DNA of 64,000 nt from Chiloscyllium plagiosum (lineage: Eukaryota): NCBI RefSeq assembly GCF_004010195.1, contig NC_057719.1, positions 29,116,822 through 29,180,821 on the forward strand, written 5' to 3'. Shown here piece by piece: positions 1-64,000 of this stretch. The notes under the pieces are model-generated. The model made no database searches. It was given only the letters and a program-made list of their open reading frames with translations, and was not told where the DNA came from. Every line of letters starts with the position of its first letter. Within the stretch, counting starts at the first letter, position 1. A program made the translations under genes and the position numbers.

Positions 1-1680
1 ACTGTATTGGTGGTGATATTGATCAGTTTACTCCTGTATGTGGGGGAGGGTGAGGGGAGATGTGACAAATGTCGAACTACAGTAAGACTTGGGATTCGAA
101 TCTATTCGGGATCATTTGTGTCCCATTCCTATGTGGACGATAGGTGTTACGATGTGAGTGCACGCCATGAATGTTGGGAGGATGGGAGACCCTATTATCA
201 GATATATAATAAAGGATGCGGTGGCAAAATCCATGGATGCCCTATAAATGACCGCTGGGTGTGTATTAGCAAAACTGGGAGGTGGGACCTATCCTCCGTG
301 TTGCTCAGGGAGCAGGTTGTCAGAGTCAAGGAGACCAAGATACAGATCCCTGATCGGGGGTTGGGGAAAGAGCAAGACCGTCAGGGAACGGTCGTGCTCC
401 CTAAAGTGCCATCTGTATACGAAGAGGTAGAAGGACAGATTGAACTCCCTGATGTTACACAAAACCTGTTTATTGATCTCACCTCTAGAATAGCCACTGT
501 TTTAAATGTTAGCAATTGCTGGGTCTGTGGGGGGCCGCATATGTCGGAACAATGGCCGTGGACTGGTCAAAGCTTAGACATAGGGGAATTGCTGCAAACC
601 ACTTGGACTCATGACAACGACAGAAAAAGCCAGGGGTGGAGACTGACAAACAGCCCTGGGGGCCAGTTCTGTATTGAAGGCAAGGGGACCGTGAAGGTAG
701 GGATTAGCCCCTGTCAGAATATATTGGATGCAACCACGCGAGTATGGTGGCCTGAGAATATTGCTTGGTACATTGCACACCGAGGTCATCAAAATTGCAT
801 TCGGTTACGCTCTGGTTCCTCCTCTTACGAGCTAAGTGCTGAGCCTTCCGATGGCATGAAAAGAGTGTGGAGTGGTGGTTGTCAGGGGAATCAATGCTGG
901 AATAATCCTGTCCAGACTCTGCCACGGGGTCAACAATCCGAATACTGGAATTGCAGTGGTCCTGGTCCTTATGAGGGCGTCCCTGGGGTAAAGGAGTTGT
1001 GGGATGACGTTGTGAGGCAGGGAGGGCCTGCTCCAGATGGCCTATTTTGGATATGCGGTAATCAGGCATATTCCAAACTGCCCATGGGATGGGCTGGGGT
1101 ATGCTTCCTGGGTCTAATACGACCTGAATTCTTCCTATTACCCCGGGAGGAAGGCGATGATTTGGGAGTTAAACTCTTTGACTCCCTGCGTAGGTCGCCA
1201 GGGGATATCCAAGTCGGTGATTGGGGGGATGAGTGGCCACCGGCCCGTATTATTGAATACTACGGGCCTGCTACGTGGGCACAGGATGGATCATGGGGAT
1301 ACCGTACTCCTATCTATATGTTAAATCGAATTATCAGGCTCCAAGCAGTCGTAGAGGTCATTACTAATCAGACCGCCCTGGCCCTGGAGTTGCTGGCTAA
1401 GCAGCAGGATCAGATGAGGGCTGCTATATACCAAAACCGGCTTGCCTTGGATTATCTGTTGGCCTCGGAAGGGGGCGTGTGCGGGAAGTTTAACCTGACT
1501 AACTGCTGTCTGAAAATTGACGATAATGGTAAAGCGGTTTTGAAGATTTCCGATGAAATTCGGAAACTGGCCCATGTGCCGGTTCAATCCTGGTGCCCTC
1601 TTGGTGGCATCGGATGGTGGGATGGTCTCCTAGGTGGTAGTTGGTGGCGCACGGCGTTACTGGTGGCTGGGGGGGCGTAA
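1..1680 (+). CDS. env: Endogenous retrovirus envelope glycoprotein, gamma-type, ERV3/HERV-R-like (5' partial; stops prematurely inside the TM anchor)
   Basis: Frame is open from base 1. Hydrophobic signal-like N-terminus (VLVVILISLLL), SU CWVC motif (517-528), ISD YQNRLALDYLLASEGGVC (1429-1482), CGKFNLTNCC. The blocks NLFIDLTSRIA...CWVCGG...EQWPW and EWPPARIIEYYGPATWAQDGSWGYRTPIYMLNRIIRLQAV closely resemble ERV3-type Env as recalled. Confidence 0.93.
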   Translation, partial: TVLVVILISLLLYVGEGEGRCDKCRTTVRLGIRIYSGSFVSHSYVDDRCYDVSARHECWEDGRPYYQIYNKGCGGKIHGCPINDRWVCISKTGRWDLSSVLLREQVVRVKETKIQIPDRGLGKEQDRQGTVVLPKVPSVYEEVEGQIELPDVTQNLFIDLTSRIATVLNVSNCWVCGGPHMSEQWPWTGQSLDIGELLQTTWTHDNDRKSQGWRLTNSPGGQFCIEGKGTVKVGISPCQNILDATTRVWWPENIAWYIAHRGHQNCIRLRSGSSSYELSAEPSDGMKRVWSGGCQGNQCWNNPVQTLPRGQQSEYWNCSGPGPYEGVPGVKELWDDVVRQGGPAPDGLFWICGNQAYSKLPMGWAGVCFLGLIRPEFFLLPREEGDDLGVKLFDSLRRSPGDIQVGDWGDEWPPARIIEYYGPATWAQDGSWGYRTPIYMLNRIIRLQAVVEVITNQTALALELLAKQQDQMRAAIYQNRLALDYLLASEGGVCGKFNLTNCCLKIDDNGKAVLKISDEIRKLAHVPVQSWCPLGGIGWWDGLLGGSWWRTALLVAGGA

Positions 1681-1835
1681 TGCTTCTACTCATCTTACCC
1701 TGCCTGATCCCCTGTGTTCAATCTTTAATCCAGAAAAATATTTCCCAACTCCAGGCAGTGGCGGTACCCCAACATGGAACGCAGGAACTTAAGGTGCTGT
1801 TGCTTCGAAAGACCAAGGATTTCCCGGGCACCTGA
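1676..1835 (+). CDS. env: Frameshifted remainder of Env: second half of TM helix plus cytoplasmic tail (VMLLLILPCLIPCVQSLIQ...DFPGT*)
   Basis: Lies in a different frame from 7..1680. Adding one G to the G7 run at 1669-1675 gives a continuous TALLVAGGGVMLLLILPCLIPC helix that ends at TGA 1833-1835, just before the PPT. Confidence 0.85.
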
Positions 1836-1868
1836 TGGGAGGATGCTTATCTTTGTCATGCACATCTT

Positions 1869-1887
1869 AAAAACAGAAAGGGTGGAA
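1869..1887 (+). promoter_or_regulatory. Polypurine tract of the provirus
   Basis: AAAAACAGAAAGGGTGGAA lies immediately before the LTR-initiating TG. Confidence 0.85.
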
Positions 1888-1888
1888 T

Positions 1889-2320
1889 TGTGAGAGACGA
1901 TTTCGGTACAAATAGTTAAGATGTGCATGACCTCAGAGTCTAAGGGGAATAGAGCCGTGGGGGTAGGGTAAAACATGCTTCTCTATAATAAAGGACGAGA
2001 CATCTGCTGCTACAGAGTAGAAAAACAAGTCCTTGATTGATAAGACCACTAACTCTGACAGAGAAGAATAAGTCCTTGACTGATAAGACTACAGGGTAGA
2101 AAAACAACTCGGGAAACTGTTGCAGACTTTGTGAGAATGTGAACCTCGTGACTCTTTAGAGCTATAGAGGGGAGGGACTTGTACTGTATTTAATCAGGAA
2201 CATTGTTAGCCTGGCGCGCTTTTTTTTCAAGGGTGCCCAACTCTGCAGACTTGTTAATAAAACTTTGTTTTCCTGAATTTGTCCAGAGCAATTATTGAGA
2301 AGAGATTTTCGTTTCTAACA
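1889..2320 (+). mobile_element. ERV 3' LTR (432 bp)
   Basis: TG...CA ends with a 10/12 inverted repeat (TGTGAGAGACGA / TCGTTTCTAACA). U3 direct repeats at about 2010-2110, TATTTAA at 2187-2193, AATAAA at 2256-2261. Confidence 0.9.
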
Positions 2321-13524: not shown

Positions 13525-15337
13525 GTGAAAGTGGGTACTGCAGATGCTGGAGATTAGAGTCAAGATTAGAGTGGTGCTGGAAAAGCACAGCAGGCCAGGC
13601 AGCATCTGAGAAGCAGGAAAATCGACATTTTCAGGCAAAAGAGGGCATTCCTGATAGAGTCATAGAGATGTACAGCATGGAAACAGACCCTTCGGTCCAA
13701 CACGTCCATGCCGACCAGATATCCCAACCCAATCTAGTCCCACCTGCCAGCACCCGGCCCATATCCCTCCAAACCCTTCCTATTCATATACCCATCCAAA
13801 TGCCTCTTAAATGTTGCAATTGTACTAGTCTCCACCACTTCATTTGGCAACTCATTCTATACACGTACCACCCTCTGTATGAAAAAGTTGCCACGTAGAT
13901 CTCTTTTATATCTTTCCCTAAACCTATGCCCTCTAGTTCTGGACTCCCTGACCCCAGGGAAAAGACTTTGCCTATTTACCCTATCCATGCCCCTCATAAT
14001 TTTGTAAGCCTCTATAAGGTCACCCCTCAGCCTCTGACGCTCCAGGGAAAACAGCCCTAGTCTGTTAAGCCTCTCCCTATAGCCCAAATCCTCCAACCCT
14101 GGCAACATCCTTGTAAATCTTTTCTGAACCCTTTCAAGTTTCACAACATCTTTCCGATAGGAAGGAGACCAGAATTGCACGCAATATTCCAACAGTGGCC
14201 TAACCAATGTCCTGTACAGCCGCAACATGACCTCCCAACTCCTGTACACAATACTCTGAATAATAAAGGAAAGCAGACTGGACACCACCTTCACTATCCT
14301 ATCTAATGCGACTCCACTTTCAAGGAGATATGAACCTGCACTCCAAGGTCTCTTTGTTCAATAATACTCCCTAGGACCTTACCATTAAGTGTATAAGTCC
14401 TGCTAGGATTTGCTTTCTCAAAATGCAGTACCTTGCATTTATCTGAATTAAACTCCATCTGCCACTTCTCAACCCATTGGCCCATCTGGTCCAGATCATG
14501 TTGTAATCTGAGGTAACCCTCTTCGCTGTCCACTACACCTCCAATTTTGGTGTCATCTGCAAACTTATTGACTGTACCTCTTATGCTCGCATCCAAATCA
14601 TTTATGTAAATGACAAAAAGTAGAGGGCCCAGCACTGATCCTTGTGGCACTCCACTGGTCACAGGCCTCCAGTCTGAAAAACAACCCTCCACCACCACCC
14701 TCTGTCTTCTACCTTTGAGCCAGTTCTGTATCCAAATGGCTGGTTCTCTCTGTATTCCGTGAGATCTAACCTTGCTAATAAGTCTCCCATGGGGAACCTT
14801 ATTGAACATCTTACTGAAGTCCATATAGATCACATCTACCACTCTTTGTTACTCATCAATCCTCTTTATTACTTCCTCAAAATACTCAATCAAGTTTGTG
14901 AGACATGATTTCCCATGCACAAAGCCATATTGACTATCCCTAATCAGTCTTTGCCTTTCCAAGTACATGTACATCCTGTCCCTCAGGATTCCCTCCAACA
15001 ACTTGCCCACCACCGAGGTCAGGCTCACTGGTCTACAGTTCCCTGGCTTTTCCTTACCACCCTTCTTAAACAGTGGCACCACGTTAGCCAGTTTCCAGTC
15101 TTCCGGCACCTCACCCGTGACTATCGATGATACAAATAACTCAACAAGAGTCCCAGCAATCACTTCTCTAGCTTCCCACAGAGTTCTAGGGTACACCTGA
15201 TCAGGTCCTGGGGGTTTATCTACCTTTACCATTTCAAGACATCCAGCACTTCCTCCCCTGTTTTGCCTGAACGTCGATTTTCCTGCTCCTCAAATGCTGC
15301 CTGACTTGCTGTGCTTTTCCAGCTCCACTTTAATCTT
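13525..15337. mobile_element. Fold-back Penelope pLTR insertion split by a CR1
   Basis: Arms at 13525-13653 and 15261-15337. TSD AACAGTTGAG(G/T)TTAG at 13510-13524 and 15338-15352. Confidence 0.8.
13654..15260 (-). mobile_element. CR1 (HER1-like) LINE, 5'-truncated, fairly young
   Basis: ORF pieces 14849-15232, 14303-14842 and 13857-14294 with KPPGPD, SGVPQGSVLGP, KFADDTK; CTCTATGACTCT tail. Confidence 0.93.
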
Positions 15338-24120: not shown

Positions 24121-24487
24121 TGAGCATCGTTTTGACAGAGACAAAGTTTGAGAAAAATTTCAGAATATGAAGAGGAGAAAATTTCATGACTAAAATAATA
24201 ATGAAACCTTTTTTCTGGAAGTTGGTAGATAAAAATATCTGAGACACTTGAACTTCTTCATTGCGGAGTACAATGTCGAAGGAATAAATTGATGTGTCTA
24301 CTATACCTTAAAGCTAATTTTGTAAGTCATCCCTTATTTATTTCATTAACTGACAATATGTCTTCAGCCACATACTGAACTTTGTTCAGTCGTCTCTGAT
24401 GAAATGCTATAGATAAAATTTGTGCGAAGATTTGTAGCTCGGGTGCTCGTTGTTGTGGTTCTGTTCGCCGAGCTGGAAGTTTTTGTT

Positions 24488-24527
24488 GCAAACGTTTCGT
24501 CCCCTGGCTAGGCGACATCATCAGTGC
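24488..24527 (-). ncRNA. Minimal type I hammerhead ribozyme motif in pLTR
   Basis: GCA-CUGAUGA-U-GUCGCCU-AGCC-AGGGGAC-GAAAC-GUU-UGC. The mirror copy on + at 25203-25242 reads GAAACAUU. Confidence 0.75.
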
Positions 24528-24821
24528 TTGGGAGCCTCCTGCGAAGCGCTTCTTTGATGTTTCCTCCGGTGTTTATAGTGGTCTGTCCCTGCCGCTTCCG
24601 GTTGTCAGTTTCAGCTGTCCGCTGTAGTGGTTGGTATATTGGGTCCAGGTCGATGTGTGTGTTGATGGAGTTTGTGGATGAATGCCATGCCTCTAGGAAT
24701 TCCCTGGCTGTTCTCTGTCTGGCTTGCCCTACGATAGTAGTGTTGTCCCAGTCGAATTCATGTTGCTTGTTGTCTGCGTGTGTGGCTACTAAGGATAGCT
24801 GGTCGTGTCGTTCCGTGGCTA

Positions 24822-25081
24822 NNNNNNNNNNNNNNNNNNNNNNNNNNNNNNNNNNNNNNNNNNNNNNNNNNNNNNNNNNNNNNNNNNNNNNNNNNNNNNN
24901 NNNNNNNNNNNNNNNNNNNNNNNNNNNNNNNNNNNNNNNNNNNNNNNNNNNNNNNNNNNNNNNNNNNNNNNNNNNNNNNNNNNNNNNNNNNNNNNNNNNN
25001 NNNNNNNNNNNNNNNNNNNNNNNNNNNNNNNNNNNNNNNNNNNNNNNNNNNNNNNNNNNNNNNNNNNNNNNNNNNNNNNNN
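24822..25081. other. Assembly gap (N run)
   Basis: 260 N bases. Confidence 1.
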
Positions 25082-25418
25082 CTTGTCCCAATATACCAAC
25101 CACTACAGCGGACAGCTGAAACTGACAACCAGAAGCGGCAGGGACAGACCACTATAAACACCGGAGGAAACATCAAAGAAGCGCTTCGCAGGAGGCTCCC
25201 AAGCACTGATGATGTCGCCTAGCCAGGGGACGAAACATTTGCAACAAAAACTTCCAGCTCGGCGAACAGAACCACAACATGCTATAGATAACTGAACATT
25301 CACGAGGTTACCTGTTAACTTTAGAGATGCAGTATAAATTGTATATTAAAGGAAAATAAAAGTTAATCTGCTGTACTAATTCAAATTGCTTTCCTAAAAT
25401 TTGTTCTTGTGCTTTTAG

Positions 25419-39714: not shown

Positions 39715-42700
39715 CCTCCCCCAAAGGAAAAAAAAAACCATTATAATGAAAAGATGGCTTCTTTTTTTTCTATATCTTAAACCCATTACAATGAAATACA
39801 TAGGTCATTAATCTAAGTTCATATTAATTTCTGTACACATATAACATTGGAATCTGTTCCATCTTATCTATACCTTTTCCTTTAAATCCGCAATAAGGCA
39901 TCTACTGTCATATTTTTATAACCCACAACATGTACAATTTGTAAATTAAAAGTCTGTAACATAAGACTCAAATGAAATATTCTTGTATTTTTGTCTTTAA
40001 AACATTCCAAGACTGTAAGAAGATTGTGATACGTGTACACAATCGTCTCCAACACATTGTTCGTCACATAAACATTAAAATATTGTAAGACCAGTACCGA
40101 ACTCAATTCTTTTTTGATGGTAGAGTAGTTTCTCTGGTGGGTATTAAGTTTCTTTGAAAAGTAGCCAGTTAGCCATTCAATTCCATCATAATCTTCCTGG
40201 AGCAGTTCAGCTCCAATTCCTATATTGCTTGCATTGATTGCAACTTTGAAGGGTTTCAAAAACTTTAGTGTAACTAAAACTGGTATGGTGGTTAATATTG
40301 CTTCTAAATGATCAAATGTCTCCTGGCATTGTTCAGTCCACTGAAATTTTGTGTTCTTCTTCAGTAAATCTGTTAGTGGTGCCATCACGCTGCTGAAGTT
40401 TGTAACAAACTTCCAGTAGAATTGCATAGTCCCAAAAATTGAAGCACCTCTTTCTTTGAGATTGGTCATGGAAATTTCTTGATGACATTCATCATGTCGT
40501 TCCTTGGGGTCAACTTTCCATGACCGATATTATATCCCAGGAACGTCACCTCTGCTTTCGTGAATTCTGTTTTCTTTAAGTTTATTACCAGTTTTGCTTC
40601 TCATAATAATTCAAAGAGTTCTGCCAACTGTATCATGTGATCTTTCCATGACTTGCTAAAGATCACTACATCATTAAGATAAACTGCATAGTTTGTTAAA
40701 CCAATCACAATTCTGTTCATGAGTCTGTGGAATGTGGCTGGTGCATACTTCATTCCAAAAGTCATCACTTTGAATGGATATAGCCCATTTGGGGTTACAA
40801 ACGCAGAAACATCTTTTAGCTTTCTCGAATAAAGGTACCTGCCAATAACAACTCAGTAAGTCCAATTTTGTAATGTAACTGGCTTGTCCAAATTTCTCTA
40901 TACAGTTCTCCAATCTTGGTTTGGGTATGAGTCCAATTTTGATATGGCTTTGACGTTCCAATAGTCCACACAAAATCGTTGCATCTCGTCAGGTTTGGGA
41001 ACTAACACGATAGGCGAACTCCACTCATTCTGACTTGGTTCAATGATATCTTCATTGAGCATCGCATTCACTGCCTTCTGGATATGTGTGACTTTGAAAG
41101 GATTAAGTCTGCAGGGGTGTTGTTTTATCAGAACTCATTGTTGTTTTATCCACCTCATGCACAATAGTATCAGTCCCTCCATCTTATTCCTGCATATGTC
41201 CTGATACTGCTGCAACAAACCTTTTAATTGGATTTTTTGCTCTTGAGACAAATAGTTCACTAACCTATCCCACTCCTCAAGGAATTCCTCATTGTTTAAC
41301 ATATTTTGAGGTACATCAAACTCCATGACATCTGGATTTGATTCATCTGTGGGGCAGTAACTAACATGACATACCCGATACAATTTTTCTTCTATCTGAC
41401 GTCTTTACCAGATAGTTTACCTGATTCAACTTTTTCTAAATTTGATAGGGACCACTAAACCTTTGAAGATATCTCCTACCACTGGTAACAATACTAATAT
41501 GTCATCCCCATTGAAAAATGTCTGAATGTCAGAGTTTTTTATCTGCTACCTGTTTCATTCTATGCTGTGCCCTCTTCAGGCGCTGTTTAGCTAACTCACC
41601 TACCCAGTTTAATCTCTCCCTTACCTCAGATGCTTAATCTAAGTGTGAGTTCTTTGACTTTGGTCCTATCAACTTCTCTTTAGTTAATTTCAAAGGCCTT
41701 CTCACTTCATGTTCAAATATCAACTCAAAGGGAGTAAACTGAGTAGATTAGTTTGTGGCATCTCTAATGGCAAACAATATGAATGGAATACCTTTATCCC
41801 AATCATTCGGGTAATCTTGACAGTATGGTCTTAACGTGGTCTTCAGGATCTGATGCCGCCTTTCCAAAGGTCCCTGGGATTCAGGATGATACGCACTTGA
41901 TTTAAAGTGCTGTACATCTAAGGTATCCATGACTTCCTTGAACAGCCTAGCAGTAAAATTACACCCTTGGTCTGACTGAATTCCTCTGGGTAGCCCATAC
42001 CACATAAAGAAAGTTACTAACTCCTCTACCCCACTTTTTGCCTTAATACTCTGTACTGGAATTGCCTTTGGAAATCTGATATACAATCCTTATGGTTCAC
42101 AAGTACTGGCTTCCACTTTCAGTTTTAGAGAGGGGAACTACACAATCAATCATAACATGCATGAAAGGTTCTTTGAATGTGGGAATTGGCAACAAAGGTG
42201 CTGGTTTTATTGATACCTGTAGCTTACCTACCATTTGGCATGTATGATATGTACAGCAAAATTTAACCACATTCTTGTGTATCCCAGGCCAATAGAATTG
42301 CTTTTGGACCTTAGCCTGAGACTCCTCATAACTAGGTGACCTCCTACTGGTAAATTATGCACAACCTGTAACACTTCCTGTCTGAATACTAATGGCAACA
42401 AAATCTGGTGCACTTGTGCCCATTTCTCCTCTGCACTGATCTGCTTTGGTCTCCATTTTCATCTTAGGATTCTATCTTTCAGATAATTATACCCAGGAAG
42501 ACATTCTGATTCCTTTTGATATGCATCAATATATATATATCTTTTATTGTTTCATCTTTCTGTTGTAAGTCCATTAGCCTTTCAGGACTAAGCACTTCTG
42601 CCTGACCCTTTGCCTGTTCTGGTTCTTTCTACACCATTACATCAAACTGGGTGTTTGCTAACTGATCCTCAACTCCTTCATCTTTCCCTTTAATTTTTGC

Positions 42701-45881: not shown

Positions 45882-46789
45882 ATACTTTTGCATCCAGTAT
45901 TCTTACAAAAGGTTTTAATTGGAATCAAACTTCATCGTAACAGATATATGCCATTAGATATCCTTGGATATCTTTGCATTATCGGTGTCTAGTTTGTACT
46001 TAACAAATATGGGGGAATGTAATGTGCAATAACATGTTAAGTTGTTTGTGACTTTTATTCCATAATTTGTTATTAATGTTAAAGATTTGTCAACCTAACT
46101 GCCTTTTATTCAGCATTCATTGAATCATTTGTAAGAAAGAATAAATGGGAGTGTCAGATTAAACAAGATTTTTACTAAAGGAGGAGAGAACACATGTGGT
46201 CTCTTTGAAATGTGGTCTCCTGTTTAATGTAGGCTATGACCCACCTGCTAAATATAGAAAGTTGAGTAACTTTAGAAAAGCAGCCAAGCAAAGCTTTTAG
46301 GGACAAAAAAGATAGAGTTCATTGCCTTTAACTGCTGGAAAACCTGGTTTTGGAGGGGAATGCAAACACAAAGGTACTTGTTATGTCCATTTTGTGTAGG
46401 TATATGTGAACACAGAAATACGAAAAGTTAAGATTACCTGCAAGACAATGAGATTTTCACTAGGTTTCTTTAATCAACTTAAAAATAATTCATTTATTAT
46501 GAAACAAAATTCATTTCTAAAACTGGTAGAAAAAGTTGGTTAGCACCGAAATGAGAATCTGCAATTAGAGCTATATTTTCTTTTAATCCCAATACCAGCA
46601 AATTTACACAACACACAAGGCAACAAAGACCCTGCAGAGATGCTAGTTTGAAAAGGCAAAAGTAAAACACCATTGTTGGGCAATGGTCTGAGAAACAAAA
46701 GGTAAAATTAATGGATTTTCATAGTCCATTGGCTTTCTTGTTGACAAAATCAAGTTTCTGACAGCCACAGACAGAAGAAAGATTTTCAA

Positions 46790-47614
46790 AGTTTGGGTGA
46801 AGATTTGTAGCTCGGGTGCTCGTTGTTGTGGTTCTGTTCGCCGAGCTGGAAATTTTTGTTGCAAACATTTCGTCCCCTGTCTAGGTGACATCCTCAGTGC
46901 TTGGGAGCCTCCTGTGAAGCGCTTCTGTGGTGTTTCCTCCGGCATTTATAGTGGCCTGTCCCTGCCGCTTCCGGTTGTCAGTTTCAGCTGTCCACTGTAG
47001 TGGCCGGTATATTGGGTCCAGGTCGATGTGTTTGTTGATGGAGTTTGTGGATGAGTGCCATGCTTCTAGGAATTCCCTGGCCGTTCTTTGTTTGGCTTGC
47101 CCTATAATGGTAGTATTGTCCCAGTCGAATTCATGTTGCTTGTTGTCTGCGTGTGTGGCTACTAAGGATAGCTGGTCGTGGAGTTTCGTGGCTAGTTGAT
47201 GTTCATGGATGTGGATCGTTAGCTGTCTTCCTGTTTGTCCTATATAGTGTTTTGTGCAGTCCTTGCATGGGATTTTGTACACTACATTAGTTTTGCTCAT
47301 GCTGGGTATCGGGCCCTTCGTTCTAGTGAGTTGTTGTCTGAGGGTGGCTGTTGGTTTGTGTGCTGTTATAAGTCCTAGGGGTCGCAGTAGTCTGGCTGTC
47401 AGTTCTGAAATGCTCCTGATGTATGGTAGTGTGGCTAGTCCTTTGGGTTGCGGCATGTCCTCGTTCCGTTGTCTTTCTCTTAGGCATCTGTTGATGAGAT
47501 TGCGCGGGTATCGTTTTTGGCAAATTCCTTGTACAGGTGTTCCTCTTCCTCTTTTTGCAGTTCTGGTGTGCTGTAGTGTGTTGTGGCCCTTTTGAATAGT
47601 GTCTTGATGCAACT
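46790..47614 (-). mobile_element. Penelope-like (Poseidon-type) element, 5'-truncated: RT thumb, GIY-YIG endonuclease, pLTR
   Basis: TLPYIRSISE, NVVYKIPCKDC..HYIGQTGR, REFLEAW. Hammerhead-like CUGAGGA...GAAAU at about 46860-46900 on -. Confidence 0.92.
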
Positions 47615-51660: not shown

Positions 51661-51872
51661 AAATAAAAACCAAAAGAACTGAGGATGCTGTAAATCAGAA
51701 GCAAAAACAGAAGTTGCTGGGAAAACTCAACAGGTCTGGTAGCATCTGTGGAGAAAAATCAAAGTTAAGTTTTTGGATCTGAGGAAGGATCATCAGACCC
51801 GAAATGTTAACTTTGGTTTCTCTTCATAGATGCTACCAGACCTACTGAGCTCTTCCAGCAACTTCTGTTTTT
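51661..51872. mobile_element. Fold-back Penelope pLTR mini-insertion (second family)
   Basis: Arms AAAACAGAAGTTGCTGG / CCAGCAACTTCTGTTTT. Central CTGAGGA-AGGATCATCAGACCC-GAAAT. Approximate TSD AT(G/T)GGGCTAAA(C/T)CTTA on both sides. Confidence 0.75.
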
Positions 51873-54157: not shown

Positions 54158-54386
54158 TAGGCAAAAGTGAGGACCGCAGATGCTGGAAACCAGAGTTTAG
54201 ATCAGAGTGGTGCTGGAAAAGCACTGCAGGTCAGGCAGCATCCAAGGAGCAGGAAAATCGACGTTTCGGGCAAAAGCCCTTCATCAGGAATAGCTGATGA
54301 AGGGCTTTTGCCTGAAACGTCGATTTTCCTGCTTCTCGGATGCTGCCTGACCTGCTGTGCTTTTCCAGCACCACTCTGATCTAAAC
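54158..54386. mobile_element. Near-perfect fold-back Penelope pLTR mini-insertion with hammerhead cores on both strands
   Basis: 93-bp arms 54195-54287 and 54294-54386 (4 mismatches), 6-nt spacer. Approximate TSD ACCTTT(C)ATGGTAAC at 54144-54157 and 54385-54399. Confidence 0.9.
54256..54291 (-). ncRNA. Minimal type I hammerhead ribozyme motif, core intact
   Basis: AUUC-CUGAUGA-A-GGGC-UUUU-GCCC-GAAAC-GUC-GAUU. Confidence 0.8.
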
Positions 54387-54910: not shown

Positions 54911-55579
54911 CTGTTTATATTACACTTCATATACACAATCCGAAATTGCTGGAAAAACTCAACAGGTCTGATTTTTCATCTTCAGATCCAAAACGTTCTG
55001 AAGAAGCATCACTGGACTTGTAATGTTAACTTTGTATTTTTCTCCACAGGTGCTGCCAGACCTGCTGAGTTTTGCCAGCAATTTCTGATTGTGTGATATG
55101 AAGGGCAATTCAGACAGTTTCAGATGAAAATCAAGTATCAAGAAAAAAAGCAGTGAACATTTCAGGTCCAGTGACACTTCTTCAGAATGTTTTGGATCTG
55201 AAGATGAAAATTCAGACTTGCTGAGTTTTTCCAGCAATTTCTAATTTTATTTCAGATTTCCAGCATTCACAGATTTTTTTTGTACTTCACGTACCCTGTC
55301 TGGAATTGATCACATTTTTGTGGATTGGTTGCATGTTATTGTTAGGGTTGGGCTTGCAGCACCAATTTACCCTCTACTGGGAACTTACTTCAAAAAGGCA
55401 GTGTTCTGTGTATGAAATATGGATTGATTTGTCTGCGTACACTACAGTCTGCTGCTGTGGCACACTTAAGAATGCAGATAAAAGGAGACAATTGAGTATG
55501 GACAGATATTTCTAGTTAACTTGTGGGAAGTGGGAATTGCTGGCTGGCCAGCATTTATTGCCTGATCCTAGTTGCCCTT

Positions 55580-63093: not shown

Positions 63094-64000
63094 AGAGCTG
63101 AAAATGTGTTGCTGGAAAAGCGCAGCAGGTCAGGCAGCATCCAGGGAACAGGAGAATTGACATTTCGGGCATAAGCCCTTCTTCAGGAATGAGGAAAGTT
63201 TGTCCAGCAGGCTAAGATAAAAGGTAGGGAGGAGGGACTTGGGGGAGGGGCGTCAGAAATGTGATAGGTGGAAAGAGGTCAAGGTGAGGGTGATAGGTCA
63301 GACTGGGGTGGGGGCGGAGAGGTCGGGAAGAAGATTGCAGGTTAGGAAGGCGGTGCTGAATTTGATGGATTTGACTGAGACAGGCTGGGGGGAGGGGAAA
63401 TGAGGAAGCTGGTGAAATCCGAGTTCATCCCTTGTGGTTGGAGGGTTCCTAGCTGGAAGATGAGGCGTTCTTCCTCCAACCGTCGTTTCGCTGTGGTCTG
63501 ACGATGGAGGAGTCCAAAGACCTGCATATCCTTGGTGGAGTGGGAGGGGGAATTGTAATGTTGAGCTACAGGGTGGTTGGGTTGGTTGGTCCGGGTGTCC
63601 CATAGGTGTTCTCTGAAACGCTCCGCAAGTAGGCGGTCTGTCTCCCCAATATAGAGGAGGCCACATCGGGTGCAGAGGATGCAATAGATGATGTGTGTGG
63701 AGGTGCAGGTGAATCTGTGGCGGATATGGAAGTTTCCTTTGGGGCCTTGGGGGGAGGTGAGGGGGGAGGTGTGGGCGCAAGTCTTGCACCTCCTGCGGTT
63801 GCAGGGGAAGGTGCCGGGAGTGGAGGTTGGGTTGGTGGGGGGTGTGGATCTGACGAGGGAGTCACGGAGGGAGTGGTCTTTACGGAAAGCTGATAGGGGA
63901 GGGGTGGGAAATATATCCTTGGTGGTGGGGTCCGTTTGGAGGTGCAAGACTTGTGCCCACACCTCCCCCCTCACCTCCCTCCAAGGCCCCAAAGGAAACT
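63094..64000 (-). mobile_element. Neptune-type Penelope element (Cys-rich linker, GIY-YIG endonuclease, pLTR) with a 5' inversion; runs off the window
   Basis: LRDSLVRS, GTFPCNRRRCKTC, IIYCILCTRCGLLYIGET..RFREH, LGTLQPQGMN. Hammerhead-like core at about 63155-63190. 63938-64000 is the inverse of 63731-63793. Confidence 0.92.

Follow-up and report, generated by a model that had tools for sequence, protein, structure and literature searches.

The 64,000-nucleotide stretch of Chiloscyllium plagiosum DNA analyzed here, which we call the window, opens with a truncated retroviral env gene that is probably a damaged copy from a young endogenous retrovirus (ERV) family, damage that we infer to have been neutral. 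Its reading frame breaks at a run of G residues where the membrane anchor begins, and our best reading of the sequences is that there is no sign of host selection for the truncated Env. An ordinary damaged copy is the likeliest explanation because the gene belongs to a multicopy family, relatives break at the same run, the stop-ended forms do not group as one clade, and a second lesion is present. The young ERV family to which this defective env belongs is already annotated in a related genome (C. punctatum). The features are compiled in Table 1.

Table 1. Coordinates of the env gene, the proviral 3' end, and fragments of other elements in the window
Feature	Position (nt)	Strand	Remarks
env open frame	1-1680	+	559 codons; 5' end truncated at window edge; stop in first third of membrane anchor
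Rest of signal peptide	1-57	+	About aa 1-19, boundary inferred; hydrophobic helix 2-14 in model; relatives start 22 residues earlier
N-terminal suppressyn-like domain, presumed receptor-binding domain	7-321	+	aa 3-107; phmmer and Foldseek
CXXC motif of SU	517-528	+	aa 173-176; intact
SU/TM cleavage motif	1189-1203	+	aa 397-401; damaged, last basic residue lost
Immunosuppressive-domain (ISD)-type stretch	1429-1464	+	aa 477-488; identical to commonest family form
TM ectodomain cysteine loop, CX6CC-type	1480-1509	+	aa 494-503; intact
G run where frame breaks	1669-1675	+	Family-wide slippage hotspot
Orphaned rest of anchor and cytoplasmic tail	1680-1835	+	Other frame, open, undecayed
Perfect 16-nt inverted repeat (1855-1870/1916-1931)	1855-1931	+	Encloses polypurine tract and U3 start
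Polypurine tract	1869-1888	+	17/21 purines in 1869-1889; directly before TG of LTR
3' LTR	About 1889-2320	+	Ends inferred from TG...CA termini
LTR U3 direct repeats; TATA-like site; AATAAA	2019-2049/2062-2092; 2187; 2256	+
Other-element fragments: RT-RNase H piece, two LINE-like RT pieces, weak GIY-YIG match	39885-40529, 14306-15289, 63345-63998	-

The env frame is free of stops from base 1 onward and is closed by TAA at 1678-1680, in agreement with the 559 stop-free codons and the C-terminus ...RTALLVAGGA reported in a first-pass annotation of this DNA. Env residue 1 aligns with residue 23 of full-length relatives, which places the start codon upstream of the window; the 5' end of env, gag, pol, the 5' LTR and the target-site duplication are all outside it too. 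Among 186 hits, the three best were ERV3-like Envs of C. punctatum (90, 85 and 76% identity), followed by Envs of rays (61-43%) and then of birds, reptiles and mammals. Pfam TLV_coat matched the product (E 5e-07) over aa 462-554, on the TM side, and the TM region also matched the TM of syncytin-1/2. Downstream, env still lies in a proviral setting, with the polypurine tract and then a TG...CA LTR carrying a poly(A) signal 3' of it. From these sequence matches we judge the gene to be the env of an ERV3-like, gamma-type provirus whose 3' end forms the start of the window, and the previous identification as a shark ERV3-like Env of a young provirus is upheld. No second LTR copy was found within the 64-kb window. 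The inverted repeat around the polypurine tract folds into an RNA stem (1855-1931) with a z score of -5.25, none of 200 shuffles being as stable, and this stem can form only at the RNA 3' end. A search of positions 1500-2400 against Rfam returned a single chance match (RMST_1, 14.9 bits versus a cut-off of 40).

The window copy has several features of a gamma-type Env, namely, the CXXC motif in SU, described as such a feature in PMC9967133, and a CXnCC motif and an ISD in the TM ectodomain, whereas a complete furin-type cleavage motif and an in-frame anchor and tail are absent from it as assembled. Of 27 readable Chiloscyllium relatives, 23 share the ISD-type stretch unchanged. The N-terminal domain matched suppressyn (8oui_D) in phmmer with an E value of 4.1e-10, and suppressyn was also its sole Foldseek match with E <=0.001 (TM score of 0.62 by target length). 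Foldseek matches to filovirus GP were weak (E 0.03 or more) and are put down to general gamma-type kinship. The AlphaFold model of the Env had a mean pLDDT of 65.8, being confident for aa 1-90 and poor in the TM ectodomain and linkers, and only its N-terminal and SU-core parts were used. Within SU, the segment 799-945 (about aa 267-315) is length-variable, with 33 or 40 residues missing in relatives, and aa 273-309 are disordered in the model. The family has SU of at least three different lengths, and these types appear to have been recombined with TM ends that they have in common.

The first-pass annotation had described a single frame defect at a G7 run, with a stop before the membrane anchor, and this is what the assembly contains. 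The run consists of seven G and is the longest G run in 1-2320. A tblastn search with the relative P0002 (XP_072438934.1) produced two pieces, 37-1599 and 1716-1829, in different frames, and showed no further frame break. The loss of the anchor also held for the gene as assembled, as the truncated C-terminus has no segment of anchor strength; its best 19-residue Kyte-Doolittle mean is 0.61, whereas four intact relatives reach 2.44-2.96. Of 50 residues compared, 48 (96%) are identical between the orphaned anchor and tail and the tail of the intact relative P0122 (XP_072436054.1), which is like the identity of the in-frame ectodomain (94-99%) and indicates that the break is recent. A second G run, at 1471-1475, is in frame in the window copy, and the relatives P0125, P0127 and P0135 end a few residues after it; we take this run, near aa 490, as a second slippage site.

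A long open env frame next to broken mobile elements had previously been pointed out. The openness is real, but the contrast with its broken neighbors is probably one of age. The ratio of observed to expected CpG is 0.56 in env and 0.51 in the LTR versus 0.23 in the rest of the window, and because of this CpG richness the element is probably younger than the surrounding broken LINE-type pieces. About 5.1% of the single-base changes in the env frame create a stop (computed), and the probability of finding no stop is 0.42, 0.28 and 0.18 at 1%, 1.5% and 2% divergence, respectively; with at most one frameshift allowed at an assumed indel rate, the values are 0.29, 0.14 and 0.06. The frame is fully open from the first Met to the G-run site in 11 of 39 Chiloscyllium relatives. 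Considering this proportion and the 0.42-0.18 chance of no stop at 1-2% divergence, the long open frame is unsurprising. Fractions of 0.57-0.67 of the words sampled from the element were present in 17 of 24 listed sequencing runs (three organism codes), leaving out three run rows with shares below 0.2; by our own arithmetic, these shares would correspond to 1.3-1.8% divergence if differences are evenly spread. There was no RNA run among those listed for the element, which says nothing about its expression. Elsewhere in the window, MITE-like head-to-head inverted repeats with arms of 83-104 nt, of two dispersed families, are located at 54195-54386, 54937-55246 and 51703-51872. In addition, a 198-nt inverted repeat (98%) at 24451-25279 flanks the only N gap of the window (24822-25081), with a further copy at 46788-47087; the arrangement around the gap may be an assembly artefact.

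To place the break in its family, we inspected the same site in relatives. The three clusters nearest to the query contain 48 members, 36 of them listed, on many different chromosome-sized contigs; together with two single-member clusters and one short record, the listed members gave the 39 Chiloscyllium proteins examined. They are annotated protein models, mostly from one other assembly, and annotation favors long frames; misassembly of the respective genomes may lie behind some of their breaks. The G-run site is reached by 23 of the 39, and 16 end before it. Fifteen of these 23 are in frame through the anchor, four (P0139, P0147, P0149 and P0154) are like the window copy in having their stop right behind the Gly run, and four continue in the third frame. 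Eight of 23 are thus out of frame at the site, where the Gly count is 2-4. The first-pass annotation had suggested comparing the run length among copies, and the run is indeed variable (two to four Gly, all three frames), as far as this can be read from proteins. Relatives broken at the site come from two different C. punctatum assemblies, represented by XP_ records on contigs of tens of Mb and more and by GCC records on short contigs. In rays, 36 of 39 relatives read through the anchor, three end earlier, and none breaks at the site. Copies with an interrupted run (two Gly, then Val) were in frame in 4/4 cases versus 11/19 for the other copies, numbers too small to count. Among the best 120 of 1045 homologues from a search for shorter matches to aa 445-559, of which four new ones were read, we found one more Chiloscyllium record, which was in frame, and no further stop-ended form.

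A tree of aa 181-554, from which the G run was excluded, was based on 25 rows (22 Chiloscyllium-type and 3 ray) and omits P0147 and P0195, which are too short, and the 16 relatives that end before the site. It rejected a single clade of stop-ended copies (AU p 1e-58) as well as one of third-frame copies (AU p 1e-4), and eight state changes were counted. As the stop-ended copies are not one clade, the G run is a recurrent slippage hotspot. Nevertheless, recombination among copies can scatter one shared lesion over a tree that is driven by SU. Over aa 403-554, each of the two sequences most similar to the window copy (98.7% and 98.0%) is a stop-ended one, the other Chiloscyllium rows being at 94.1-96.7%, and Val-Ala precedes the run in three Chiloscyllium sequences (window copy, P0147 and P0154), all of them stop-ended and with differing Gly counts. 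These sequence similarities hint at an anchor-less 3' haplotype that stop-ended copies have in common by descent.

The ray sequences also bear on the history of the virus. The Hemitrygon akajei Envs P0005, P0155 and P0162 are 88-90% identical to the window copy over aa 403-554, a figure that drops to about 60% over aa 181-402, and Hemitrygon and Narcine have clusters of 41 and 37 members (those of P0007 and P0009) with many full-length, near-identical Envs. At the sequence level, this suggests recent activity of the retrovirus lineage and its transmission between sharks and rays.

The description of the Env as near-intact was correct for the reading frame and incorrect for the SU/TM cleavage motif, the last basic residue of which is gone through a change at aa 401 that is private to the window copy. 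The family has the complete motif: of 38 Chiloscyllium relatives examined, 30 were readable and 29 have it, and of 39 ray relatives examined, 29 were readable and 28 have it. In total, 11 columns that are otherwise conserved carry a change private to the window copy, 7 of them in aa 1-180 and 4 in aa 181-554. For the former region, the C. punctatum rows have 0-5 such changes and the single C. plagiosum row has 10; for the latter, the other rows have 0-4. The excess may partly reflect the different host species. Extra Cys residues are present at aa 73 and aa 532, and the window copy has the longest end branch of the tree (0.065 versus a median of 0.013). If made, the product would be an uncleaved, anchor-less ectodomain.

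A real but neutral slippage mutation, a reading absent from the three offered in the first-pass annotation, could have come about as follows. A gamma-type, ERV3-like retrovirus would have multiplied to dozens of copies in bamboo-shark genomes, as seen in the annotated proteins of C. punctatum and as we infer for the host of the window. Its env encodes the Gly stretch at the anchor start by a G run, which presumably slips either in reverse transcription or in later host DNA replication. Slippage during host replication is an equal candidate for homopolymer frameshifts. For reverse transcription, frameshifts were reported to cluster at homopolymer runs in vitro with the HIV-1 enzyme (PMC3185545). 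Slipped copies are observed in all three frames, and the window copy, as assembled, has the frame with the immediate stop and has lost the cleavage motif. If it were transcribed from the 5' LTR and spliced, an uncleaved ectodomain without anchor would enter the ER and be either secreted or retained.

The main rival explanation holds that assembly or consensus calling went wrong at a homopolymer in a repeat family, the real locus then encoding an anchored Env, with or without the cleavage lesion. We regard this as doubtful but possible enough to be taken seriously. No G run in the element is longer than the one that carries the break, there is a gap in the assembly (260 N at 24822-25081), the orphaned tail shows no decay, and env genes can look truncated through misassembly, as stated in PMC13461226. 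On the other hand, the frame is unbroken at each of the two G6 and four G5 runs of the same gene, breaks at the same site are found in relatives from two separate assemblies, and the in-frame length variants (2-4 Gly) are those of a mutable run.

That the truncated Env is under selection, either co-opted as a soluble receptor blocker or immunosuppressor or belonging to an anchor-less 3' haplotype that spread as tolerated or useful, is in our view unlikely. The signal peptide as far as it lies in the window, the suppressyn-like N-terminal domain, CXXC, the ISD and the Cys loop are intact, the closest TM-ectodomain matches are stop-ended, the stop lies at the membrane anchor as in EnvR (PMC3610889), and mammals co-opted truncated Envs on repeated occasions (PMC9245640). 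However, co-opted env genes are typically low-copy, form clusters common to many species and are under purifying selection, according to PMC13461226, whereas here the family is young and multicopy. Instead of a low copy number with one shared truncation, the relatives on which this was judged revealed a 48-member family with mixed break types. Furthermore, the stop forms, which vary in their number of Gly, fail to group as one clade, and the window copy combines an undecayed tail with a damaged cleavage motif and the extra Cys residues. In murine leukemia virus (MLV), superinfection resistance is some 100-fold lower with Env cleavage mutants, whereas a cleavage-site mutation in HERV-T Env does not prevent it from blocking its receptor (both in PMC9967133); set against each other, these two cases mean that the cleavage lesion lowers the chance of a defence function without abolishing it. 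The convergent secreted Env proposed in the first-pass annotation is therefore disfavored by the dozens of copies, the breaks into both other frames, the lack of a single clade and the second lesion.

A related idea is that the hypermutable G run acts as a contingency site that makes anchor-less Envs (9 of 24 at the site, window copy included), at least one of which, equipped with a suppressyn-like receptor-binding domain and an intact ISD, would be secreted and recruited as a receptor-blocking defence. We consider this quite unlikely. By analogy, the N-terminal resemblance to suppressyn makes receptor blocking a possible by-product.

Also put forward before was a slippage-switchable anchor. 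In such a case, transcriptional or ribosomal slippage would give secreted and anchored Env from one gene, analogous to filovirus GP editing. The orphaned anchor and tail are open and conserved and the run is variable among copies, but such a programmed switch is extremely improbable, as three stretches downstream of the run fold no better than shuffles (z 0.97, -1.29 and 0.40; pseudoknots are outside the model), the run lacks the A or U triplets required of a canonical slippery heptamer, and it is host Pol II, rather than an editing viral polymerase, that transcribes a provirus. As 15/23 copies are simply in frame and no listed ray relative (0/39) is broken at the site, the normal state of the family needs no switch.

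Neutral damage thus remains the preferred reading, and a damaged copy as such matters little, since truncated env genes are common. Of some wider value is that one homopolymer gives rise again and again to the same Env without anchor, a type of starting material from which restriction factors were recruited in mammals, and that the similarity of the stingray Envs points to recent virus spread between sharks and rays. Were the copy fixed, expressed and secreted, soluble-Env defence would extend to cartilaginous fish, and if the contingency-site idea were true, a soluble-Env restriction factor would have been caught at birth in this group. At the level of literature listings, we found no paper on this ERV family or on soluble Env in sharks; the main text of PMC10435555 does not name Chiloscyllium, and its supplementary lists of invading ERVs may hold the family.

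The nearest known counterparts are the C. punctatum ERV3-like Envs P0002, P0122 and P0139 (XP_072422952.1), which have the same motifs. Identity is 76-90% overall for the three best matches and 94-99% in aa 403-554; no listed member of that family is identical to the window copy, and the cleavage lesion is private to the latter. Of the Envs with known function, EnvR/ERV3-1 of primates belongs to the same Env class by the database naming of hits but is not an ortholog. Its stop just upstream of the anchor, which leaves an ectodomain with the ISD, is conserved in all simians, immunosuppression is retained, and placental expression is high (PMC3610889). The shark stop, in contrast, is copy-specific, results from a frameshift and occurs in a young multicopy family; by analogy, the shark copy would resemble EnvR in architecture if expressed. 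Bamboo sharks lay eggs, which makes a placental role unlikely. Suppressyn (PDB 8oui) is like aa 3-107 of the shark Env in both sequence and predicted fold, and suppressyn and Refrex-1 are truncated Envs that act by receptor interference (PMC13461226; PMC9245640). Human envV1 shares with the window copy a long env frame, a lineage-specific frameshift, a C-terminal truncation and close relatives of full length (PMC3610889), but it is one of two tandem loci kept alike by gene conversion, whereas the shark copy belongs to a set of dozens of young copies at scattered locations.
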